From Acidobacteriota bacterium (GTDB lineage: Bacteria; Acidobacteriota; UBA6911; RPQK01; JAJDTT01), in NCBI GenBank assembly GCA_965217775.1, contig CBDCJH010000002.1, positions 3,360,001-3,424,000 of the forward strand: DNA of 64,000 bases, written 5' to 3'. The notes beneath the pieces were generated by a model. The model did no database searches. It had not been told where the DNA came from and saw nothing but the letters and a program-made list of their open reading frames with translations. The position numbers and the translations under genes were made by a program. Numbering within the stretch: position 1 is the stretch's first letter; each line of letters opens with the position of its first letter. Of the stretch, positions 39,802-51,990 are shown piece by piece.

Positions 39802-42387
39802 ATGACGGAAATGCTAATCATGGATCCATGGGGAAAGTTCCAATCCCCCAACAACTTCCATCGTCTTGAGCATCATTGCGCGGATGTCGCGGCTTGTTTT
39901 GAAGCACTGGTTCGCGATCCCGTAATGCACTCTCGGTTCAAGCAGGCATCAGGTGTCGACGAGTTCTCGGTCACGACGGCAGCCCGTTTGGCCGTGCTGG
40001 TATTCCTGCACGATTTCGGCAAGTTGAACACTGGTTTTCAGTTCCAGGTATACGACCGTAGAGAGTTTCCCGGCGCGCCGCGGAAGTCCGGTCATATCGG
40101 CGAGGCCTTGCTGGCACCGAACGAGATCCTTGAGAGGCTTGGTCTTTTCGAGATCTTCGATTCCTGGGGAAACGCCGTGGATCCATTGCTTTGCGCGGCA
40201 CTTTCTCACCACGGGCGTCCCGCGCGCAGACCGACGCGTACCGGGACTGGTCCCCCGGAGATCTGGAAGCCTTTTTCCGGCTACGACCCAAGATCCGCCG
40301 CCACTCGGTTGCGTGAGCGGAGCCGCGCTTGGTTCCCACATGCGTTCCGGAATGGTCCCGAGTTACCCGATACCCCCGCGTTGGCGCATCTGTTTGCCGG
40401 GGTCGTCACCCTCGCGGATCAGATCGGATCGAACGAAGAATTTTTCAGATTTGTGCCCCATTCCGATCGACACTATATCGACCGGGCCCGCGATATCGCG
40501 GCCAGAGCGGTCGAAGAATTGGGTTTCCACCGAGCCGACCGGCCCCAGAATGCTCCGCCCACCGACATTCGAATACTCTTCGAATACGAAGAACCGCGCC
40601 CGTCGCAGAGCGCCGTGACCGATGCGCCGCTCGATACTCCGCTCCTGATCCTGGAGAGTGAAACCGGATCCGGGAAGACTGAGGCCGCGATCCTTCGTTT
40701 CGCCGCCCTCTGGCGCCGGGGACTCGTGGACGGGCTGTACTTTGCCGTGCCGACCCGCGCGGCAGCGAAACAACTGCACATTCGGATCTCCCGGGGTCTT
40801 GCGCGGCTCTTCACGGAAAACCGACAGGTGGAGACGGTCCTCGCGGTCCCAGGCTATCTCGTCGTCGGAACTGCCGAGGGGCGCCGGGTCGGCAGGTTCG
40901 ACGTGTTCTGGGAGGATAAACCTGACGAGGCGGCGCGCCTGGCGCGCTGGTCCGCGGAGAGCGCTCGAAAATTTCTGAGCGCCACCGCGGCGGTCGGGAC
41001 GGTCGATCAAGCGCTGCTTGGAGGGCTGAAGGTGAAGTGGGCTCATTTCCGTGCGGCTTCCCTGGCACGCAGCCTTCTCGTTGTGGACGAGGTGCATGCC
41101 AGCGACGCGTATATGACGGAAATTCTGCGCACCTTGCTCCAAGGACATCTGGATCTCGGCGGACACGCGCTCCTGATGTCGGCCACTCTCGGCGCCGTAG
41201 CTCGGACGAAGCTTGCAACAAGGGGACGAACCTGTCTTCCACCTCCCGCCGATGCGCAAGCTGTTCCGTATCCGGTGCTCACGCTCGCCGATGAAAGCGG
41301 TTCGCTCGAGACGCGACAGATCATTGGAGGCCAGTCGACTAGACGCGTGTCGATGAACCTGGAGCCGATCCTGGAGGATCCGACCGATATCGCAGTCCGC
41401 GCCATTGAGGCGGCTCGGCACGGGGCCAAGGTTCTCGTGGTTCGCAACACGGTCACCAGCGCTCAGGATGTTTTCCGGGCGCTCCTGGATCAGGGTGTTG
41501 GAGAAATCGCGTTGAGTGTAGCGGGAAATCCTGCTCTGCATCACAGTCGTTTCGCGGCTGAGGACCGAGCGTTGCTCGACGACGCCGTCGAGCGCGTTCT
41601 GGGAAAGAATCGCATCTCCAGGGGCGCGGTGGTCATCGGCACCCAGACCCTTGAACAGTCTCTCGACATTGACGCCGACCTCCTCATCTCGGACATTTGT
41701 CCGGTCGATGTCCTTCTCCAGCGGATCGGACGCCTGCATCGGCACCAGAGGGCCGATCGGCCACAAGACTTCAGGAAACCCATTTGCGTGGTGGTCACGC
41801 CGGAGGCGGGACTGGAGAGTGGGCTGGACGGAAGGCTCCTCCGCCATGGGCTGGGCGTCTCGGAACAGGGCGGCGTCTACCGCAACCTGCTCGTGCTTGA
41901 GGCAACGCGACGACTCATCTCCGAACACTCGATTTGGGCCATCCCTGGCATGAACAGGATGTTGGTGGAGGGTGCGACCCATCCCGAACTGTTGCGCGAA
42001 TTGGCGGAAACTCTCGGCGGCGATTGGCTGTCTCACGAGCAGAAGGCTTTCGGTCTAATCGCGGCGGAGGCAGGGGTTGGCCGGAACCATTCGTTCACCC
42101 GCAAGGAAAGGTTCAACGAGCGATTTTTGTTTTCCGATATAGACGAAAATGTACGGACTCGACTGGGCGACGACGGTCCGCGCATCGTGCTCGAGGGTCC
42201 CGTGACAGGTCCGTTCGGTAAACTCGTCCGGACCTTCGCTTTACCGGCGCACCTGTTCCGAGGATCCTTGCCGAATAAGGAGGAGATCGAAGCCGCCCGG
42301 GCCGTGCCGGGAAAGGACGAACTACTTCTGCTGGTCGGCGAACATCGGTTCGTATACGACCGGACCGGGATTCGAAGGAGGAGTTGA
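39802..42387 (+). CDS. cas3: CRISPR-associated helicase/nuclease Cas3 (type I-E)
   Basis: HD domain (LEHHCADV, LHDFGK); ETGSGKTE, DEVH, SAT, QRIGRLHRH. Confidence 0.95.
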   Translation: MTEMLIMDPWGKFQSPNNFHRLEHHCADVAACFEALVRDPVMHSRFKQASGVDEFSVTTAARLAVLVFLHDFGKLNTGFQFQVYDRREFPGAPRKSGHIGEALLAPNEILERLGLFEIFDSWGNAVDPLLCAALSHHGRPARRPTRTGTGPPEIWKPFSGYDPRSAATRLRERSRAWFPHAFRNGPELPDTPALAHLFAGVVTLADQIGSNEEFFRFVPHSDRHYIDRARDIAARAVEELGFHRADRPQNAPPTDIRILFEYEEPRPSQSAVTDAPLDTPLLILESETGSGKTEAAILRFAALWRRGLVDGLYFAVPTRAAAKQLHIRISRGLARLFTENRQVETVLAVPGYLVVGTAEGRRVGRFDVFWEDKPDEAARLARWSAESARKFLSATAAVGTVDQALLGGLKVKWAHFRAASLARSLLVVDEVHASDAYMTEILRTLLQGHLDLGGHALLMSATLGAVARTKLATRGRTCLPPPADAQAVPYPVLTLADESGSLETRQIIGGQSTRRVSMNLEPILEDPTDIAVRAIEAARHGAKVLVVRNTVTSAQDVFRALLDQGVGEIALSVAGNPALHHSRFAAEDRALLDDAVERVLGKNRISRGAVVIGTQTLEQSLDIDADLLISDICPVDVLLQRIGRLHRHQRADRPQDFRKPICVVVTPEAGLESGLDGRLLRHGLGVSEQGGVYRNLLVLEATRRLISEHSIWAIPGMNRMLVEGATHPELLRELAETLGGDWLSHEQKAFGLIAAEAGVGRNHSFTRKERFNERFLFSDIDENVRTRLGDDGPRIVLEGPVTGPFGKLVRTFALPAHLFRGSLPNKEEIEAARAVPGKDELLLLVGEHRFVYDRTGIRRRS

Positions 42388-42470
42388 CCGAACTTGCCAC
42401 ACAAAGAACTAGGGGCCGAACGTTACCGTTCCCCCTCCCCAGCGGGATGGGGACTACGAAACAATATCCC

Positions 42471-44054
42471 ATGCATAACCTCCTCTTTGACCCACTGATC
42501 CGAGTTCGCTTGACGGACGGCACAATCGAAGCGATGTCGTTACCCGACGTGTATGCAGCCTTGTCGGAAGACCGAGTCGCGGCCTTTCCTGCACTGCGGC
42601 CTCATCAACGCCACGCTTGGCATGCCTTCCTGGCCCAACTCGGTGTGATTGCGTTGCACGGAGCAGGCGAAGACACGCCGCCTCATACGGCGGCGGACTG
42701 GCGTGTGCTTTTTTGGGACCTGACGCCGGAGTTCGGCAATGAGGAACCCTGGCGGCTGATCGTCAATGACCCGGCTCGACCCGCCTTCATGCAGTCCCCC
42801 TCACCCGGGGGGTTCGACGACTATCGACGTCGCATAGTGACGCCCGACGACCTCGATATTCTGGTCACGGCGAAGAATCATGACGTTAAACAGACAATCG
42901 CCACTGGGGCATCGATCGACGACTGGATCTTCGCGTTGATCGATCTCCAGACCATGGCCGGCTTTCAGGGTGCCGGAAACTATGGCATCGCCCGTATGAA
43001 CGGTGGGTTTTCTGCGCGACCTTGCCTGGGCCTCGCCCCGGCTGACGGGGGTCCGGGTGCGCATTTCCTCCACGATTTGACCCGGATGCTCGCCGGTCGA
43101 GAAGCGTTGCTCCGAGACTACTCCGATTATTTCGATCCGGAGTTCGGGCTGCGGTTGATTTGGCTGGAGCCATGGGACGGCACCAGTTCCCTGGACTTGC
43201 GCAACCTGGACCCGTACTTCATTGAAATCTGCCGCCGGCTGCGGCTTCGACTGAACGGAAGTGAGGTGGTTGCCTGGATGGCGACGTCCAAGGTGAATCG
43301 CATCGCAGCCAAACAAGCACACGGTAGTCTTGGCGATTTCTGGACTCCGGTGGAAAGGAAAAACGGCAAGGCCCTATCTCTCTCGCAGGTTGGCTTTCGC
43401 TACGACCGACTTGCCAAGCTGCTTTTCGATGATGCTACGTTCAAACCTCCTCCGGCGATGGAGGTCTCCTCATCCCGGCCAGGACGGTGGCGGGTGATCG
43501 CGCGCGGTGTCGCCGGCGGGCAAGGCAAGACGGACGGGTACCACGAGCGCAACGACATCGCCTTCGACCCGACGACCGTGGGGGCCATGTTCAATCGTCG
43601 GCGACGAGACGTCCTGGCGCAGATTGCAGAGGCGCAGGTCGAAGAAATTCGGGAAGTGGAAAAGGCACTACGGTTCAGTGTCGCCGTGGCCGCCAGCGGT
43701 GGCAAGAACACCAGTGAACTCACCAAGACGGACAGAGCGCACGCCAATCCCTTCGCACGCCGCTTGGACGGCGCAGCGGACGCACAGTTCTTCTCCGCCC
43801 TCGAAAGCCGGTTCCACGCCGCAGACAGCAAGGCGGCCCGTGCCAGCCGCGTGGGGTTCGCGCGCCGTATGATCGCCGAAGCAAGGAAACTCCTGGACGA
43901 GGCGATCGAAACCGTTCCCTGTCCGGCGATCCGGCGCCATCGGGCACGAGCGCGGGGGATCAATGCGTTTTGGGGACGGCTCCGCCGACCGCAGAGCGTG
44001 TTCAGCGATCAACCCGAAATCTTCAACTCGAAGGAATCGAACGATGCCGCCTGA
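42471..44054 (+). CDS. casA: type I-E Cascade large subunit Cas8e/Cse1
   Basis: HNLLFDPLIRV start; LDPYFIEICRRLRL; operon position. Confidence 0.85.
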   Translation: MHNLLFDPLIRVRLTDGTIEAMSLPDVYAALSEDRVAAFPALRPHQRHAWHAFLAQLGVIALHGAGEDTPPHTAADWRVLFWDLTPEFGNEEPWRLIVNDPARPAFMQSPSPGGFDDYRRRIVTPDDLDILVTAKNHDVKQTIATGASIDDWIFALIDLQTMAGFQGAGNYGIARMNGGFSARPCLGLAPADGGPGAHFLHDLTRMLAGREALLRDYSDYFDPEFGLRLIWLEPWDGTSSLDLRNLDPYFIEICRRLRLRLNGSEVVAWMATSKVNRIAAKQAHGSLGDFWTPVERKNGKALSLSQVGFRYDRLAKLLFDDATFKPPPAMEVSSSRPGRWRVIARGVAGGQGKTDGYHERNDIAFDPTTVGAMFNRRRRDVLAQIAEAQVEEIREVEKALRFSVAVAASGGKNTSELTKTDRAHANPFARRLDGAADAQFFSALESRFHAADSKAARASRVGFARRMIAEARKLLDEAIETVPCPAIRRHRARARGINAFWGRLRRPQSVFSDQPEIFNSKESNDAA

Positions 44055-44616
44055 TGAAATGTTTCCGGCCACGGACAAAACGAGCGATACACCAGATCTC
44101 AGGCGCGTCATTCCCATGATCGCGGTCGAGATCGCTCGACTCGGGCCGGGACCGGCCGCAGCTCTACGTCGAGGTCCTCTCTCTGGCCCCGGAGCGGCCG
44201 CATTCTGGAAACTGACGGCGAGATACGTTCCCAGCGAGGCGGCGAAGAACGAATACGGATGGGCTGCGCTCATCCAGGCGATTACGATCTTGACACCGAA
44301 GGGGCGAGATCCAAACAAGAAATCGGCGCACGATCCCCGGGTGCCCTTGGGTAGAGCGCTGTACAAGTCAGTGTTCTCCGAGTTGCGCCTGGCCCGACTG
44401 CTCGGGGCGACCACGGAGCTGCGCCGACTGCTTGCGGTACGCGCCTGCCGACGCATGGCGGCCGCTGGACAGAACCGCTTTGATCTCGTGACTCTGGCCT
44501 TTTTCATCCTGTTCGGCGATGACCAGACAGACCGTAGAATCGCCCGTCACTACTACCGCACCGAAGCCACCGCCGGGCGCGAATCTCAAAAGGAGGAGGG
44601 CTCCACCGATGCCTGA
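44044..44616 (+). CDS. casB: type I-E small subunit Cas11/Cse2
   Basis: GPAAALRR, SELRLARLL, RIARHYY. Confidence 0.85.
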   Translation: MPPDEMFPATDKTSDTPDLRRVIPMIAVEIARLGPGPAAALRRGPLSGPGAAAFWKLTARYVPSEAAKNEYGWAALIQAITILTPKGRDPNKKSAHDPRVPLGRALYKSVFSELRLARLLGATTELRRLLAVRACRRMAAAGQNRFDLVTLAFFILFGDDQTDRRIARHYYRTEATAGRESQKEEGSTDA

Positions 44617-45745
44617 CGTTCGCTTTCTCCAAATTCACAGTCTGCATGGCTATTCGGCTGTGCTGCTGAACCGCGACGACTCCGGTCTCGCAAAACGCAT
44701 TACCTACGGCGGCACCATCCGCACCCGTGTGTCGTCGCAGTGCCTCAAGCGTCACTGGCGAACGGCCGATAGCGTCCACGCCCTGCAACGAATTGAGGGC
44801 GCCATCGCTGCAGTCCGTTCCCGGGAAACCGTCACCCGCCGAGTGATCGGGCCACTTGAGAATGCCGGTCACGATCCCGAATTGGTCACGGCGATAGAAA
44901 CCGCATTTCAGACCGCCGTTTACGGCGACAAGGGTGACAAGAGATCGAAGCGGCAACCTCTTCTGCTCGGTGAACCGGAAATCGCCTATCTTGCCGATGA
45001 AGCTCGCAAGATCGCGGACTCTCACATGCGAGATCCAAAAGCGGCTGGGGCCGCAGCAAAGGAGTGGGCCAAGAAGTCAAAGGCGAACATGAAAACTCTG
45101 CGCGATAATTGCTCGCTACCGGGCGGCATCATCGCCGCCTTGTTCGGCCGGATGGTGACGTCGGATGTCGAGGCCAATATCGATGCGGCGATCCATGTCG
45201 CTCACGCCTTCACCGTTCACGCGGAAGAGAGTGAGAGCGACTACTTCACCGTGGTCGACGATCTGCATCGCATCGAAGATGACGCCGGAGCCGACCACAT
45301 TGGCGAGACTGAACTGACCTCCGGTCTCTTTTACGGTTACGTCGTCGTCGACCGAGGAATGCTGCTCGAAAATCTCGGGGGCGACCTCGAAATGGCGGAA
45401 GAGGTCGTGGAACGGCTGATCCATTTGATCGCCACCGTCACGCCGGGAGCGAAGCTGGGAGCCACTGCCCCTTACGGGTATGCGTGTTGGATGATGGTCG
45501 AGACCGGCGACCGGCAGCCGCGCAGCTTGGCCGAGGCGTTTCGGCAACGCTGCCGGCCTGACATCAGCGAGGCCCAAAAAAAGGTGAGCCAACATCTGGA
45601 AAAGCTCGACGCAGCGTATGAAACCGGTGAATCGCGGCGGCTGATGAGCCTCGACACGGAGGCATTCATGCCCGGGGCAGAACGGCTCCCATTGGCGAAG
45701 CTTGCCAAATGGACTGGAACCGCAACGCGAGAGGGTGTCGCGTAA
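44609..45745 (+). CDS. cas7: type I-E Cas7
   Basis: LNRDDSG..K, RVSSQCLKRHWR, ALFGRM, DYFTVVDD. Confidence 0.95.
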   Translation: MPDVRFLQIHSLHGYSAVLLNRDDSGLAKRITYGGTIRTRVSSQCLKRHWRTADSVHALQRIEGAIAAVRSRETVTRRVIGPLENAGHDPELVTAIETAFQTAVYGDKGDKRSKRQPLLLGEPEIAYLADEARKIADSHMRDPKAAGAAAKEWAKKSKANMKTLRDNCSLPGGIIAALFGRMVTSDVEANIDAAIHVAHAFTVHAEESESDYFTVVDDLHRIEDDAGADHIGETELTSGLFYGYVVVDRGMLLENLGGDLEMAEEVVERLIHLIATVTPGAKLGATAPYGYACWMMVETGDRQPRSLAEAFRQRCRPDISEAQKKVSQHLEKLDAAYETGESRRLMSLDTEAFMPGAERLPLAKLAKWTGTATREGVA

Positions 45746-46461
45746 TGCGGTGGATGCATCTGCGGTTTCGTGCGCCGCTCGCGGCCTTCGGCGGTGAGGC
45801 GATCGACGCCCGCGGCGTGACTCGGAACTTTCCGGCTCAATCCATGCTGACCGGCCTGCTGGCCAACGCCCTCGGCTGGACGCGATCAATGCGCGGGGAG
45901 CATCAATCGCTGCAGGACCGCATCGTGTTCGCTACGTTGTGGGAGCGAGACCTCGGACTGAGCCGGATGACGGACTATCAGACGGCACAGCTCGGCAAGA
46001 AGGATCGAGCCTGGACCACCCGCGGCATGCCGCTTGGGAGAGCCGGCGGACCTGCGACTTATGCCGGGTCGCACCAGCGATGGCGCGATTACCACACTGA
46101 CCTGCGTTTGGCCGTAGTGCTGCGGCTTGAGCCCGCCGACGCATCGCCCACCCTGGAGGATCTGGCGAAGGCGCTCGACCGACCCTCACGGCCGTTGTTC
46201 ATCGGGCGCAAGTCTTGCTTGCCGTCCGCGCCGATCTTCACCGGTTGGGTGACACAAGCGGTTGATGCCCGGGCCGCCCTGCGGGCGGTCGCCCCGAAGG
46301 GAGATTCTGGTCTGCTCGCGTTCTGGCCCGAATCCGAGGGCACCCGCGGCGCTCACCGGACGATGAGTGTTACCGACGAGCGAAACTGGGCGAGCGGACT
46401 CCATGGCGGCGGGCGTCGTTTGTGCGAGGGCCGGCTCACCCCGGCGAGAAACGAGAAATGA
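45745..46461 (+). CDS. cas5: type I-E Cas5
   Basis: LRFRAPLAAFG, SMLTGLLANALG, DYQT, LFIGRKSC. Confidence 0.95.
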   Translation: MRWMHLRFRAPLAAFGGEAIDARGVTRNFPAQSMLTGLLANALGWTRSMRGEHQSLQDRIVFATLWERDLGLSRMTDYQTAQLGKKDRAWTTRGMPLGRAGGPATYAGSHQRWRDYHTDLRLAVVLRLEPADASPTLEDLAKALDRPSRPLFIGRKSCLPSAPIFTGWVTQAVDARAALRAVAPKGDSGLLAFWPESEGTRGAHRTMSVTDERNWASGLHGGGRRLCEGRLTPARNEK

Positions 46462-47243
46462 CGACTCATCTGATTTACGCGTTCCTCAGTATGCGAGCAT
46501 TCAACCGGTGGGCCGGCAACCGCGGGCTCATGCGCCACGGCTCATTCGACGAGGGCTATGCCCTTCACGTCCTTCTGTCCGCCATGTTCGGGAAGGCCGT
46601 CGTACAGCCGTTTCGACTATTTGCGTCTCCGCGGCGAATTGGTGCCGCGCTCTACGCCTATTCCGATGTGGACGCGGACGAGTTACGCAAGACGGCGGAA
46701 GCTGTGGCACCTCCGGACTGCCTTGCTGTGATCGATTGGCGGCAGATTCGATCGAAGCCTATGCCGTCCCCCTTTGAGACCTGTCGGCAGCTCGGTTTCG
46801 ATGTCCGGGTGCGGCCTGTGCGTCGGCTACGGCACGATCTCATGGATCCGCAGTCCAACCGGCTGATCTCGAAGGGCTCGGAGGTGGATGCGTTCAAGCT
46901 GCAAGCAATGCGACGGTTCCCGAACGGATGGGCTGATCCTCATAAGGCGGCTTCGAAGAACGGAATCAGGCGCGAGTCGGTCTACTCCGGCTGGCTCAGC
47001 GAACGGTTCGGCGATGCGGTCGCCATCGAGCACTGCAAGTTGGTGGCGTTCAAGCGAAGTCGTGTGGTTCGCGGCAAGGGCCGTGGTCCGGAGGGGCCGG
47101 ATGCGACCCTGCACGGAACACTTGCCGTTTCAAAACCAACGGATTTCAGCCGGATCTTGCGGAAAGGTGTCGGACGTCACCGCGCCTACGGATACGGCAT
47201 GTTGCTTCTGCGGCCACCAAAGACAGAAGGGCACACCCAGTGA
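46458..47243 (+). CDS. cas6e: type I-E Cas6e/Cse3
   Basis: GYALH; C-terminal GVGRHRAYGYGMLLL glycine-rich loop. Confidence 0.92.
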   Translation: MTTHLIYAFLSMRAFNRWAGNRGLMRHGSFDEGYALHVLLSAMFGKAVVQPFRLFASPRRIGAALYAYSDVDADELRKTAEAVAPPDCLAVIDWRQIRSKPMPSPFETCRQLGFDVRVRPVRRLRHDLMDPQSNRLISKGSEVDAFKLQAMRRFPNGWADPHKAASKNGIRRESVYSGWLSERFGDAVAIEHCKLVAFKRSRVVRGKGRGPEGPDATLHGTLAVSKPTDFSRILRKGVGRHRAYGYGMLLLRPPKTEGHTQ

Positions 47244-48130
47244 TGCTGAAAGGACGTCTCGGCCTTGAAACTGCCCGGATCCCGCATGCGGATAGAGCTG
47301 GGCTGCTCTGGCTCTCCCGTGGCGCGCTGACCGCGCGAGACGGGACCCTGTCCTTTGAACGCGGCCGACAGGTTACAGAAAACAACCCTTTGGAACCGGG
47401 GCATTACGCCATTCCGTTTCAGGCCGTCTCGATGATACTCCTCGGCCCGGGATCCACGGTCAGTCATGATGCGCTGCGTCTATTGGCCCGTCACGGCACT
47501 GCCCTCGCGGCCGTCGGAGTGGATGGTGTCCGATGCTATACGGCTCCTCCATTGATGGCCGACCGGTCGGAACTCGCGCGACGACAGGTGCGCGCCTGGG
47601 CCGACTTGGATACTCGGCTCCAAATCGCCCGTCGGATGTACGCCTGGCGCCTGGGTGAGGTCCTACCTCGCCGCGACATCGCGGCGCTACGCGGCATGGA
47701 GGGGGCCAGGATGAAGCGAACATATAGGCTGATGGCGTCGAAATATGGTATCGAGTGGCGGGGACGGCGCTACGATCGGAAGCGTCCAATGGAGAACGAC
47801 TCACCGAACCAAGCGCTGAATCATGCGTCGAGCGCGGTGCAAGCCGCTGCCGCCATTGCCGTTGCCGCAACTGCGACGATTCCGCAATTGGGCTTCATCC
47901 ATGAACACCCGGGAGAGTCTTTCGTTCTGGACATCTCCGACCTCTACCGCGACGTTGTAACCGTTCCCTGTGCCTTCCGCGCAGCCAAGAGGGTCACGGA
48001 ACGACCAGCAGAGAATATTGAGCGGGTCACTCGACGTCTCACAGGGCAAGCGCTGGCCCGTGAAGGAATCATTCCCGCGATGATCAACCGGATCAAGGCC
48101 CTATTTACGAAACAGCCGAAAGGGAGGTGA
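47240..48130 (+). CDS. cas1: type I-E Cas1
   Basis: LLGPGSTVSH, LRGMEGARM, LGFIH, SFVLDISDLY. Confidence 0.95.
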   Translation: MMLKGRLGLETARIPHADRAGLLWLSRGALTARDGTLSFERGRQVTENNPLEPGHYAIPFQAVSMILLGPGSTVSHDALRLLARHGTALAAVGVDGVRCYTAPPLMADRSELARRQVRAWADLDTRLQIARRMYAWRLGEVLPRRDIAALRGMEGARMKRTYRLMASKYGIEWRGRRYDRKRPMENDSPNQALNHASSAVQAAAAIAVAATATIPQLGFIHEHPGESFVLDISDLYRDVVTVPCAFRAAKRVTERPAENIERVTRRLTGQALAREGIIPAMINRIKALFTKQPKGR

Positions 48131-48137
48131 AGGCACG

Positions 48138-48431
48138 ATGCCGATGGCGATGGTCGTCACCCGAAACGTCGAGGCTCGCTATCGCGGTTTCCTCGCCTCC
48201 ACCATGCTGGAAATTGCCCCAGGCATGTACGTGGCTCCGAACCTGACCGCCAGCGTGCGAACACGTGTATGGACCGTATTGTCGAAGTGGTGGGCGGCGC
48301 TCGGCTCGGGGTCGATCGTCATGGTGTGGCGGGACAGTAAAGCTACCGGTAATCTCCGCATCGAGACCCTTGGCGAACCCCCGAAAGAGATAGTGGACGC
48401 CGACGGAATCCTTCTCGTAAGACGCGGATGA
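48138..48431 (+). CDS. cas2: type I-E Cas2
   Basis: RGFLASTMLEIAPGMYV..VDADGILL. Confidence 0.93.
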   Translation: MPMAMVVTRNVEARYRGFLASTMLEIAPGMYVAPNLTASVRTRVWTVLSKWWAALGSGSIVMVWRDSKATGNLRIETLGEPPKEIVDADGILLVRRG

Positions 48432-48479
48432 CTGCGGCTCCGTTCGATCGACGTTCTTTGAAAATTTAAAAATACAAGG
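48432..48479 (+). promoter_or_regulatory. CRISPR leader (short, AT-rich)
   Basis: GTTCTTTGAAAATTTAAAAATACAA between cas2 and the first repeat. Confidence 0.75.
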
Positions 48480-50888
48480 GGTTCCCCCGTACACGCGGGG
48501 ATAGACCTTTGATGGTGACTTCTCATGACCGCCATCACCGGGTTCCCCCGTACACGCGGGGATAGACCGGTGTCGGCATTCGAGGTGCTGGCGGGGCAAT
48601 CGGGTTCCCCCGTACACGCGGGGATAGACCATAGGAGTTTGTCGGCGGTATCGACCCTCACCCGGGTTCCCCCGTACACGCGGGGATAGACCCCGGGGTG
48701 GAGGGATGCTTGAGTATTCCAGACGGGTTCCCCCGTACACGCGGGGATAGACCGTTGTCGGGCCGCGGGGCCAACAAGGGATATCGGGTTCCCCCGTACA
48801 CGCGGGGATAGACCGCATCAAAGAGCGAGACTGAAATCGTCCACAGTGGTTCCCCCGTACACGCGGGGATAGACCTCCTCACGGCGTGAGAATTCGATGG
48901 TGTTCCCCGGTTCCCCCGTACACGCGGGGATAGACCCGCCTGGGGCAGAGGCTGACGCCTGGGGCATGGGGTTCCCCCGTACACGCGGGGATAGACCCTG
49001 GCTCGGCAACGCCTATCGGTGCTATCGCCGGGTTCCCCCGTACACGCGGGGATAGACCCTCAGGCAACCTTGGACCTTCCCACGCCTCAGCGGTTCCCCC
49101 GTACACGCGGGGATAGACCCTGGCAAATCAAATGCTTCAACAAGCGTATCAAGGTTCCCCCGTACACGCGGGGATAGACCCTCAGGCAACCTTGGACCTT
49201 CCCACGCCTCAGCGGTTCCCCCGTACACGCGGGGATAGACCCTGGCAAATCAAATGCTTCAACAAGCGTATCAAGGTTCCCCCGTACACGCGGGGATAGA
49301 CCCGGCACAGCCGGAGGAAGAGCCGGGTTCCGAGGGGTTCCCCCGTACACGCGGGGATAGACCGAAGTACGATTGCCCATTTGTGAGGCCGTCCACGGTT
49401 CCCCCGTACACGCGGGGATAGACCGAGGCAGACCCCGAACCGATCCGAACCGCTCCCGGTTCCCCCGTACACGCGGGGATAGACCCTCCTTGAGAGCGTC
49501 CCTGACCCGCTGCTCCTGGGTTCCCCCGTACACGCGGGGATAGACCGTATCCGTGAGACATGAGGGTTTCCTCCTTGAGGGTTCCCCCGTACACGCGGGG
49601 ATAGACCCGGAACCGGGCCCGTCACGGTTGACCAAGAAGGGGTTCCCCCGTACACGCGGGGATAGACCCTGGCCAAAGAGATGCTGGAGGTCCTCCGCAC
49701 GGGTTCCCCCGTACACGCGGGGATAGACCTTTGGAGGGGCCCGAAGAAAGTGGCGGAGAATCGGTTCCCCCGTACACGCGGGGATAGACCCATGATGTGG
49801 CTCCGGCCGGGCACGTCGAAAATGGTTCCCCCGTACACGCGGGGATAGACCCGAGTGCGGCCGCGTCGTCGAAGGCGAGGTATCGGTTCCCCCGTACACG
49901 CGGGGATAGACCCTGATTGCTCCATCCCGATTCGGAATTGATACGGGTTCCCCCGTACACGCGGGGATAGACCCTGGAGACGGGTGAGGACGGAGCGTGC
50001 GTGTGGGGTTCCCCCGTACACGCGGGGATAGACCTCGACCGGGCCAGATCCGGCACTCCCAGACCTTGGTTCCCCCGTACACGCGGGGATAGACCTGTTC
50101 ATTATGCGACCTTGCCCATGACCCGGTGGGTTCCCCCGTACACGCGGGGATAGACCCACCTGCAGGAAAGCATCAGGTATTACACGGACGGTTCCCCCGT
50201 ACACGCGGGGATAGACCCAGCTTCGGCCAAGACCTCAGCGACGACATTAAGGTTCCCCCGTACACGCGGGGATAGACCCTCGATATTTCGAGCCTCCGCA
50301 TACCTTCGGGCGGTTCCCCCGTACACGCGGGGATAGACCCTGCAAAGTCGGGCGGAATAAGTACACGAGCTAGGTTCCCCCGTACACGCGGGGATAGACC
50401 CTTCATGCCGATCCGGATCGAGTCTCTGTCCGAGGTTCCCCCGTACACGCGGGGATAGACCGACGCACGTATCGATCACGCCGCCGCTAAGCTGGGTTCC
50501 CCCGTACACGCGGGGATAGACCTCAGGCAATAGACAATCGCAACGATCAGTCCCGGGTTCCCCCGTACACGCGGGGATAGACCCTGGCTCAAGCTGATTT
50601 GGACTCCCGTCGGAAGGGTTCCCCCGTACACGCGGGGATAGACCATAGGAGTTTGTCGGCGGATCTACCCTCACCCGGGTTCCCCCGTACACGCGGGGAT
50701 AGACCCCAGGGCGGTCATAACGAGGGCGAGTGCATCGTGGTTCCCCCGTACACGCGGGGATAGACCCCAGGGCGGTCATAACGAGGGCGAGTGCATCGTG
50801 GTTCCCCCGTACACGCGGGGATAGACCCATGCCGGCCGGCGCGAACCCGGCGCTCGGGCGGGTTCCCCCGTACACGCGGGGATAGACC
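48480..50888 (+). CRISPR. type I-E CRISPR array, 40 identical 28-nt repeats and 39 spacers (33 nt; spacers 2 and 3 are 34 nt)
   Basis: Repeat GGTTCCCCCGTACACGCGGGGATAGACC at a 61-nt period; stem CCCCGT/GCGGGG. Confidence 0.98.
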
Positions 50889-51234
50889 ATGGGCGCGTGC
50901 CCTCGGGGCGAACACGCAGGTCGTCCGTCTGACTCAGCGCACAGCCTCGAAGCAGCGCAAGAAACACCGGGATCTGGATCTCGACGACTACCGAACGCGC
51001 TTGCCGGACACCCTGCGCTCTCCAGACCTCGTCATCGATGACACGGGGCACTGGAATCGTCCAGGGATCACTCTGGATTTCGTGACCTATGGCTCACAAG
51101 GGAGGATCTGGAATTCGGTCATCGCGGAGGACGACAAGGGCCATGCGCGCCTGGCGTCATTTTAATAGACGGGCCATGAAGACATCGATCGCACCCTCAA
51201 TCGCGGCAAAGTGTTGCTCGATCTCAGGAAATGA
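50889..51234 (+). pseudogene. fragment of a phage MuF-type C-terminal PBECR2-like RNase domain, fused directly to the last repeat; internal TAA-TAG at 51163-51168
   Basis: ALGANTQVVRLTQRTASKQRKKHRDLDLDDYR..LPDTL..ARLASF**TGHEDIDRTLNRG resembles Mu-like minor-head-protein C-terminal domains (from recall). Confidence 0.6.
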
Positions 51235-51367
51235 ATTCGAGAGGGAGGTGCCGGGATTTCGCCGTTAGGCATCCGCTCCCGGCGGGCGCCCGAGCCCAGT
51301 ATAGCAGCGGCGACCACCTCGATAGATCAGGGACTCCGGAGGCGGGTCGTACTATCCACGGACCGCT

Positions 51368-51602
51368 GTTCCCCTGGACTCCCTTTCGCCGTCATTTCAC
51401 TGTGTAGGCGTGGAAAAGATCCGAGATCAGAGACAAACGGAGGAGAGATGAGCGGGGATTCTTGGATATCTGCCGATCGTCCCGGCCAGCGATCGGACGC
51501 AAGATAGCACGAGTCCACGAGGAGGGTCAATTTTTCTAGCGGAACCGCGGAACCGGTTCCCCCTATACTCCCATTCGCCCTCCGTTCACTGTGGCAGGCA
51601 TG
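51368..51602 (+). repeat. imperfect direct repeat pair of about 45 bp (51368-51412, 51556-51602)
   Basis: Shared blocks CCCCT..ACTCCC.TTCGCC.TC..TTCACTGTG..AGGC.TG. Confidence 0.8.
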
Positions 51603-51612
51603 ACGCCGAAGA

Positions 51613-51762
51613 AGGGTTCCCCCGTACACACGGGGATATGGTGGTCATGGATGTCTACGAGGAGATTGTCCGGAGGGTTCCCCCGTACACACGGGGATAT
51701 GTTGAGGCTCGGATCGATTCCCATTCCGCACAGAAGGGTTCCCCCGTACACACGGGGATATG
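51613..51762 (+). CRISPR. atypical mini-array: 3 repeats AGGGTTCCCCCGTACACACGGGGATATG, 2 spacers of 33 nt
   Basis: Identical 28-nt units at 51613, 51674 and 51735 (61-nt period); variant of the main repeat. Confidence 0.92.
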
Positions 51763-51789
51763 CCTGCCCAATCTTGCTGGCATCAAAGC

Positions 51790-51990
51790 GTTGGCGGCCA
51801 ACAACTACCGTCATGTGGCACGTCAGGAGTCCCAGATTGAATCCACACAATTGCAGTAGCCGCTTGCGCAGCTTGGGACGGCCCCGGGCGTAGACCTCGA
51901 TCAACCCTCCCGCCATGAACTGATGCGCGTACGAGTCGTTCCGCCGGTTCAAACCGCTCATTCTGTAACGAGGTCCTCAGGATCGTTTCT
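51790..51990 (-). mobile_element. degenerate C-terminal remnant of an IS1182-like transposase
   Basis: SYAHQFMAGGL..RKRLLQLCGFNLGLL resembles the ERSFAH..GG..RG..KR....FNLGLL C-terminus; frameshifted. Confidence 0.55.

Follow-up and report, generated by a model that had tools for sequence, protein, structure and literature searches.

We report on a small type I-E CRISPR array whose repeat-spacer units are shifted by 2 nucleotides (nt) with respect to the canonical repeat of the host, and which carries an exact copy of the start of one of the host's own genes. The array lies at positions 51613 to 51764 of a 64,000-nt stretch from an Acidobacteriota bacterium (GenBank assembly GCA_965217775.1, contig CBDCJH010000002.1, positions 3,360,001 to 3,424,000 of the forward strand); this whole stretch is hereafter referred to as the window. 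The host genome is a metagenome assembly of 6.43 Mb with a completeness of 97.9% and a contamination of 7.5%, and the contig concerned, C2, accounts for 6.29 Mb of it. The mini-array is located 724 nt past the end of the main CRISPR array, with a complete type I-E operon of CRISPR-associated (cas) genes 3.2 kb upstream. Our findings make it quite probable that the mini-array is an ectopic acquisition tolerated by the host. As for its history as a whole, two ectopic integrations by Cas1-Cas2 into an old, degenerate terminal repeat, with no purpose-built guide involved, appear somewhat more credible than not, while the notion that a mirror-oriented docking of the integrase caused the shift has, in our view, an even chance of being correct.

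The mini-array and its shifted register

The shifted unit, AGGGTTCCCCCGTACACACGGGGATATG, is 28 nt long and was identified by exact search and folding. It is present in exactly three exact copies (51613-51640, 51674-51701 and 51735-51762) at a period of 61 nt, with none expected from 100 shuffles; when up to 3 mismatches are allowed, the search picks up nothing more than two repeats of the main array, at 49578 and 50615, both of which chance to stand after AG. Between the copies lie spacer 1 (51641-51673) and spacer 2 (51702-51734); the third copy, together with the CC that follows it, extends over 51735-51764 and contains, in canonical register, a degenerate terminal repeat (51737-51764). Compared with the main repeat, GGTTCCCCCGTACACGCGGGGATAGACC, the unit starts 2 nt earlier, bears a single G>A change and ends in ATATG instead of ATAGACC, with AG before all three copies and CC after the last copy alone. 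On folding, the G>A change turns the closing pair of the hairpin from U-G into U-A, and the 6-bp stem and the 4-nt loop are retained. The 90 nt upstream of the mini-array are not AT-rich, unlike the main leader, and no promoter-like site was found upstream of it on either strand. In all of these respects the original prediction, which had described three identical 28-mers in an earlier register, a preserved hairpin and a missing AT-rich leader, and had quoted both spacers, proved accurate.

The shifted register is real, because the identity between spacer 1 and its chromosomal counterpart ends exactly at the shifted borders. In terms of its I-E hairpin, its period of about 61 nt and its position beside I-E cas genes, the mini-array has the features of a canonical type I-E array. 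Such repeats canonically have a 5-nt flank ahead of the hairpin and 7-8 nt behind it, an arrangement found on the minus strand only, the plus strand reading 7+16+5, and the canonical handle, which starts with AU and ends with CC, is lacking on both strands. On the other hand, 28-nt units placed around 33-nt inserts at a terminal repeat, away from the leader-proximal repeat, are what defines ectopic integration. A fuzzy search of the whole genome with a 26-nt core of the repeat, allowing up to 5 substitutions, returned 43 matches, all on the plus strand of C2 and confined to the main array and the mini-array; no further locus of the genome has a repeat of this type.

Spacer 1 matches the start of a host gene

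Spacer 1 is identical in 33 of 33 positions to nucleotides 1750831-1750863 of C2, the same 6.29-Mb contig on which the array lies, and this identity does not extend beyond either of the two shifted borders. As its identical counterpart lies on the host chromosome, away from the array, it is a self-targeting spacer. Self spacers make up one of the two spacers in the mini-array as compared to none of the 39 in the main array, whose best non-self ungapped scores against the host genome (22-25 of 33-34) do not rise above background. The matched site is the start of an intact gene encoding a 285-aa protein of the XdhC/CoxI family (PF02625, 9e-23; PF13478, 9.8e-41). The match begins 6 nt upstream of the ATG and 1 nt downstream of a promoter-like TTGACT-18-CAAAAT site, and covers the start codon. 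The 33-mer is conserved at 94-100% in 8/8 same-genus genomes searched, and contigs matching the flanks of xdhC, with loose ends at 51641 and 51673, are present in all four metagenome runs that contain the stretch. Along C2 the cumulative GC skew has its minimum at 5.01 Mb (origin) and its peak at 1.70 Mb (terminus), which leaves some 50 kb between the peak and the protospacer (1.7508 Mb).

A second, partial match of spacer 1 was observed in the host genome (G000:C2:1585400-1585422), where 22 of 23 contiguous positions agree in a frame encoding ...IMDLYEEIPDE. Over all 33 nt of the spacer this site scores 24, which is background, and it is probably a case of convergent coding of the same peptide motif.

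Searches for the source of spacer 2

The original prediction had expected both spacers to match the 5' ends of host genes, spacer 1 that of an XdhC/CoxI-like gene and spacer 2 that of a DusB-like gene. The expectation holds for spacer 1, down to the last nucleotide, and fails for spacer 2, which has no source in the host genome (best match 22/33, equal to background). Nor was a source detected in 41 relatives, and among 401 genomes of the phylum the best match is 27/33, in unrelated genes and frames. Phages and plasmids gave nothing convincing (E of 3 or worse), and an exact 27-mer of the spacer has no match in metagenome and viral contigs. DusB itself was considered as a source and discarded: the sole PF01207 hit of the genome is weak (23.9 bits), so that there is no clear Dus gene, and the start of its open reading frame (ORF) differs from the peptide encoded by spacer 2.

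The third copy and the ancestral end of the array

Using Cas1 as query, we collected 80 related I-E loci; flank, leader and handle statistics were computed over 61 of them, and their arrays provided 2677 related spacers. In the closest related locus, L013, Cas1 is 94% identical to that of the window and the cas operon 87-91%, the repeat is the same, and synteny is kept on both sides of the array. In L013 nothing interrupts the array, and its last repeat, which is degenerate, shows the G>A change along with a canonical 3' end. The trailer and the gene beyond it correspond to those of the window; the alignment with window positions 51737-51949 reaches 87% for terminal repeat plus trailer, and the next gene aligns at 93%. 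Since the L013 terminal repeat shares both the G>A change and the trailer, the third copy of the mini-array is the ancestral terminal repeat of the array. Both the 724-nt segment that precedes the mini-array and the mini-array itself are missing from L013. By the same comparison, the lineage of the window has gained two further changes at the 3' end of the repeat, the 724-nt segment and two repeat-spacer units. Together with the exact borders of spacer 1, the alignment with L013 speaks for an off-register integration at an orphan, terminal repeat, as had been put forward in the original prediction.

Neither the repeat nor the mini-array was found in 40 relatives and 400 other genomes of the phylum, and the 28-mer has no exact match in metagenome contigs or in IMG/VR. 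Several related loci carry 2-4 identical variant repeats at the trailer end. Of the terminal variant repeats inspected in 20 related loci, none is shifted. Among the 2677 related spacers, none resembles a spacer of the window (at least 24/33) or the segment 50889-52086 (at least 25 matching bases).

Geometry of the integration

The hairpin of this repeat type is flanked asymmetrically: a 5-nt 5' flank precedes the 16-nt hairpin in 60 of the 61 related loci, and 7-8 nt follow it in 59. The unit of the mini-array reads 7+16+5 on the plus strand and 5+16+7 on the minus strand, and its minus-strand dot-bracket structure is that of the main repeat. In the E. coli I-E system, it is the junction of leader and repeat that determines the first cut, and the second falls 8 nt past the IR2 motif and 16 nt past the IR1 motif of the inverted repeats (IR), while insertions upstream of IR1 mostly gave longer repeats (Goren 2016, PMC5039180). 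Counting these ruler distances on the sequence, the main repeat and the minus-strand unit of the mini-array both fit 8 and 16, and the plus-strand unit gives 6 and 14.

The surroundings of the unit can be compared in a similar manner. Leaders of the related loci end in AGA in 48 of 61 cases and in AGG in 9, and the minus-strand junction of the mini-array is ...CAGG, at the end of a trailer that reads CTTTGA-N20-...CAGG on that strand. On the plus strand, ...GAAGA directly precedes the shifted unit. The first nucleotide of the related spacers is a C in 2053 out of 2677 (77%); in spacer 1 a C is in first place only if the minus strand is read, and on the plus strand the two mini-array spacers begin with G or T. 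These features are compatible with a docking of Cas1-Cas2 in mirror orientation, in which case the 2-nt offset would arise because the two flanks of the repeat differ, 7 nt versus 5 nt. We also considered whether the G>A change, by making the arms of the hairpin symmetric, had led to the flipped docking, and rejected this idea: most consensus repeats of the related loci already have fully complementary arms, and the change therefore explains nothing of the docking.

The intervening segment derives in part from a Mu-like phage

The 724-nt segment between the two arrays (50889-51612, plus strand) is flanked by repeats on either side and so has the look of an oversized spacer. What is left of a phage Mu F-like head-morphogenesis gene, a decayed C-terminal fragment, takes up its first ~340 nt (50890-51231); the fragment starts at nucleotide 50890, the second base past the last main repeat (end at 50888). 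The 91-aa frame that opens at 50890 shares 75% identity with a 416-aa homologue (P0002; Phage_Mu_F, PF04233) over residues 303-393 of the latter, and the homology continues to residue 416 (~51231) across 2 in-frame stops. Homologues of Mu F are present in 28 Mu-like IMG/VR contigs, and the fragment in the window is the sole Mu F homology in the host genome. The remaining ~380 nt of the segment have no match in the sequences compared, and the Mu-like contigs are similar to it within the Mu F gene only. Recombination between phages and CRISPR spacers was reportedly described by Varble et al. in 2019, and by analogy a spacer-mediated recombination with a phage would be one possible route for the arrival of the segment. 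The likeness consists in phage DNA lying inside an array from a repeat-spacer border onwards; the difference is that only a decayed 724-nt remnant is seen here.

Two further observations concern this DNA. Within the segment, a 49-nt direct repeat (51356-51404 and 51545-51593, 73% identity, 189 nt apart) was noted. Past its upstream copy, at roughly the spacing to be expected, there is a stretch with a weak likeness to the 3' half of the CRISPR repeat; this may represent an older, decayed pseudo-leader with its repeat, or chance. In addition, a spacer of a related I-E array (L024:12382-12414) has a 30/33 match inside Mu F as carried by a Mu-like IMG/VR contig (L132:6495-6527), with mismatches at spacer positions 1, 4 and one more and with TT as upstream flank, the sole and imperfect hint at a protospacer adjacent motif (PAM). 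On account of this match, the targets of this I-E clade include Mu F in Mu-like phages.

The cas operon, the main array and the trailer

The type I-E cas operon (39802-48431, plus strand) is complete, and its eight ORF products all fit the expected Cas families in Pfam. In order, it comprises cas3 (39802-42387), cse1 (42384-44054), cse2 (43963-44616), cas7 (44519-45745), cas5 (45709-46461), cas6e (46422-47243), cas1 (47240-48130) and cas2 (48138-48431). A 48-nt leader (48432-48479, plus strand) follows, recognised in comparison with the related leaders by an AT-rich stretch, a CTTTGA motif and ...AAGG at the repeat junction. The main array (48480-50888, plus strand) alternates 40 identical 28-nt repeats with 39 spacers, each 33-34 nt long. 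Two of the spacers form a 122-nt block that recurs exactly (49031-49274, spacers 10-11 being equal to 12-13), and spacers 37 and 38 are identical (50706-50799). Spacers 3 (48631-48664) and 36 (50645-50677) are near-identical, with the first 18 nt equal and the remainder diverging, which would fit a re-acquisition from a variant of one target.

Downstream of the mini-array, the conserved trailer (51765-51961, minus strand; 87% identical to that of L013) belongs to a 132-aa minus-strand ORF (51563-51961) without a match in Pfam, which we take to resemble the C-terminus of an insertion sequence transposase. Positions 51808-51945 of the trailer are multi-copy, at 70-77% identity, in the host genome and in 8/8 same-genus genomes.

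With respect to the architecture of related loci, a second block of identical repeats is found 0.5-5 kb beyond the first one in many of them (L017, L019, L026, L029 and L030, and likewise L042, L044, L045, L049 and others). Several of these second blocks are preceded by truncated repeats, not by leaders; arrays in this clade are therefore frequently broken up by insertions. A spacer of one such locus (L029:12269-12301) matches L063:16229-16257 at 27/29, a site that resembles an initiator transfer RNA gene.

Possible guides and protospacer flanks

If the mini-array were transcribed and processed, the handle of its CRISPR RNA (crRNA) would, on the plus strand, consist of AUAUG and the first three bases of the spacer, with GT or TT after ATATG where canonical handles have CC; on the minus strand it would be GAACCCU. 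Neither ends in CC, and a handle of the form AT...CC is encoded in 60/61 related loci. The geometry laid out in the original prediction for the plus strand is correct: after Cas6e cleavage the first 3 spacer nt would fall into the 8-nt handle, and the apparent PAM would be GTG or TTG. At the spacer 1 target, the flanks are AAT/G on the plus strand and AG/C on the minus strand (the slash marks the spacer border), so that the PAM position would read GTG, after processing, or AGC; neither flank is of the AAN type.

A PAM for the clade was sought in several ways. The main array and the array of L063 have no match in the phage and plasmid collections. When the main array was compared with 400 genomes of the phylum, with 2 candidates scored per genome, only array-to-array matches were obtained, and the array of L018 against 5 genomes returned array matches and one repeat-like match only. 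The 2677 related spacers gave one low-complexity match of 27 nt in the host genome and one imperfect match among all loci collected.

Discussion

The findings presented here allow a history of the mini-array to be proposed. The starting point, shown by the comparison with L013, is an uninterrupted array whose terminal repeat already had the G>A change and was followed by the present trailer. Mu F phage DNA, whose presence at the site is plain from its homology, would then have been inserted exactly at a repeat border, separating the terminal repeat from the rest of the array. In the absence of a true leader, the integrase could have docked mirror-wise on the near-palindromic core of this repeat, taking the trailer side as a pseudo-leader. 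Given the asymmetry of the repeat (5+16+7), docking in this manner would duplicate a 28-bp unit lying 2 nt upstream on the plus strand, and both integrations would have proceeded alike. One of the two 33-bp prespacers has its identical source in the host chromosome, ~50 kb from the terminus; how it reached the integrase can only be suggested by analogy. In this regard, naive adaptation in E. coli takes self DNA from hotspots at Ter, at oriC and in the vicinity of the array, according to a review (PMC10011333). Lastly, the perfect self-match would persist beside intact cas3 and Cascade genes as the crRNA of the unit would be defective or unlicensed. Since neither the cas genes nor the targeted gene show damage, the reason for self-tolerance must lie in the guide; "anomalous insertions of spacers" are among the routes of self-spacer tolerance listed in the same review (PMC10011333).

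Several points weigh against this history. The ruler rules on which the mirror-oriented docking leans derive from E. coli and not from the clade of the host. Read on the minus strand, spacer 2 starts with T, a class of 10%, and an orientation matrix scores the two spacers higher on the minus strand (by +2.5 and +1.1 nats) but is right for only 23 of 37 main-array spacers. A cut on the plus strand directly after AGA, in ...GAAGA/AGGG, offers another explanation. Regarding the origin of spacer 1, the top of the GC-skew curve is flat, staying within 2% of its highest value between 1.43 and 1.74 Mb, which makes the position of the terminus approximate, and the protospacer sits directly after the promoter-like -10 hexamer and over a start codon, a placement that, by our rough estimate, only a few percent of random genomic 33-mers would share. 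As for tolerance, that the PAM of the spacer 1 target is unlicensed is an assumption, and so is a silent or unprocessed mini-array. Finally, metagenome data allow more than one reading. Four DNA runs of a single study contain the stretch, and in two of them the mini-array is covered exactly as in the window. In a further run, X4, a contig of 324 nt with a depth of 4.2 joins 51609 to 51732, and thus lacks both spacers, across a shared 31-nt word. If these 31 nt equal the word size of the assembler, the join may reflect the ancestral allele, a deletion that came later, or an error of the assembly. The mini-array may be polymorphic. Joints of 50888 to 51672 and to 51732 were likewise encountered in metagenome contigs and set aside, their sides being only 25 nt long and probably belonging to other arrays.

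The same accident could have taken place in normal orientation, as the original prediction had it, with the first cut directed by the leader-like AGA 2 nt upstream (...GAAGA/AGGGTT) and the second one made 28 bp further on. The abutting GAAGA and the 48 of 61 related leaders that end in AGA right before the first repeat lend this version some appeal. It nevertheless seems rather unlikely to us: in E. coli the inverted repeats, and not the first cut, anchor the second one (PMC5039180), which predicts a duplication of 30 bp where 28 are observed, and both spacers would start with G or T whereas 77% of the related ones start with C. That the three units are a relic, the oldest part of the array from an era of different register and lost from L013 by deletion, would be in keeping with the variant repeats that often persist at trailer ends, several related loci having 2-4 identical ones, and with a report in which terminal repeats mutate most (PMC12839519). 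Such an origin is hardly credible, however, in view of the 5+16+7 register of 60/61 related loci, of the 20 loci inspected without a single shifted trailer variant, of a terminal repeat in L013 (G>A, canonical 3' end) that is not the hybrid expected from a repeat-to-repeat deletion, and of a perfect self-match that, if old, would be expected to be decayed or purged. Variant repeats and spacers could also have travelled with the phage fragment in the form of a repeat element, viral crRNA-like or anti-CRISPR, and then have recombined with the terminal repeat of the host. The mini-array does abut phage-derived DNA, and phage mini-arrays and solitary repeats are described in earlier work (10.1101/2024.10.29.618823; PMC10651486; Shmakov 2023, PMC10120712). 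A phage-borne origin is still very improbable: in L013, where no phage fragment is present, the terminal repeat of the host array has the G>A change as well, orthologous host DNA makes up both the third copy and the trailer, and spacer 1 matches a housekeeping-type gene of the host conserved in all eight congeners. The lack of any exact match of the 28-mer in IMG/VR or the metagenome contigs further sets it apart from phage-encoded repeat elements such as Racr or viral crRNA-like RNAs.

A different sort of alternative grants the mini-array a function as a regulatory guide. It would be transcribed and processed by Cas6e, and the handle, shifted by 3 nt, and a non-cognate PAM would let Cascade bind at the promoter and start of xdhC and repress the gene without recruiting Cas3. 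The 33/33 match 1 nt past the TTGACT-18-CAAAAT site and over the ATG, together with the intact Cas6e hairpin and cas genes, are what such a guide would need, and I-E loci with regulatory mini-arrays have been described (Shmakov 2023, PMC10120712). As characterised in that study, however, these mini-arrays have partial matches (at least 10 bp), a canonical PAM, a location in I-E loci that is mostly between cas3 and cas8, and conservation in close relatives. CreA, tracr-L and the guides at cas8 promoters (PMC10120712) do resemble the mini-array in having few degenerate repeats by type I cas genes and a promoter-proximal host match; the latter differs from them in its full-length match, its place at the trailer end, its distant metabolic target gene, its absence from L013 and a handle without the otherwise invariant terminal CC. 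Spacer 1 shows no partial, seed-weighted complementarity, since it pairs over 33/33 nt, or over 30 contiguous nt after canonical processing. Moreover, conservation is lacking in the 40 relatives and 400 other phylum genomes as it is in L013, the mini-array may be polymorphic, no promoter-like site precedes it, and spacer 2 has no target in the searches made. We therefore consider a regulatory role improbable. In its most specific form, a natural CRISPR interference device in which three target-derived bases in the handle and a non-licensing PAM would leave a 30-nt Cascade match at the promoter and start of xdhC without recruiting Cas3, it is distinctly improbable; if true, it would link the maturation of molybdenum-cofactor enzymes to the expression of CRISPR-Cas. 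Among the functions offered in the original prediction, Cascade-based regulation thus finds no footing in the known regulatory features (conservation, partial match, position in the cas operon), homing-type guides have nothing positive in their favour, no search for transposon genes having been made, and tolerated by-products are the best fit.

A tolerated ectopic acquisition, which we continue to favour, also has the closer parallels in known systems. Self-targeting spacers are said to have been interpreted as accidents of autoimmunity by Stern et al. in 2010. Tolerated examples, as treated in a more recent account (Wimmer & Beisel 2020, PMC6990116), share with the mini-array a spacer from a chromosomal gene, mutated repeats, a location at the edge of the array and no sign of conservation; the difference is that escape would here be due to the 2-nt register shift of the unit, with target and cas genes intact. 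"Neo-CRISPR" arrays, formed by non-canonical integration by Cas1-Cas2 (Nivala et al. 2018, as cited in 10.1101/148544), together with the two-ruler model, provide the second parallel, in that a 28-bp duplication and a 33-bp insert are found off the leader-proximal repeat and the rulers fit on the minus strand. The present case differs in being natural, in lying at the array's own terminal repeat and in its apparently mirror-oriented arrangement. Our literature search yielded no description of a natural array with a unit offset by flank asymmetry. Taken together, the mini-array fits better with self spacers tolerated through local array defects and with non-canonical integration than with regulatory mini-arrays.

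If the mirror-oriented docking is true, the mini-array would be a natural record of I-E integration flipping its polarity at a repeat without a true leader, and the inverted-repeat rulers of E. coli would predict the 2-nt offset exactly. For surveys of self-targeting spacers, it follows as a caution that a perfect self-match on a start codon need not imply regulation. More broadly, mis-registered units may serve as neutral traps that keep self spacers which a working array would lose, for instance those from DNA near the terminus, and such traps would give a view of unselected acquisition.

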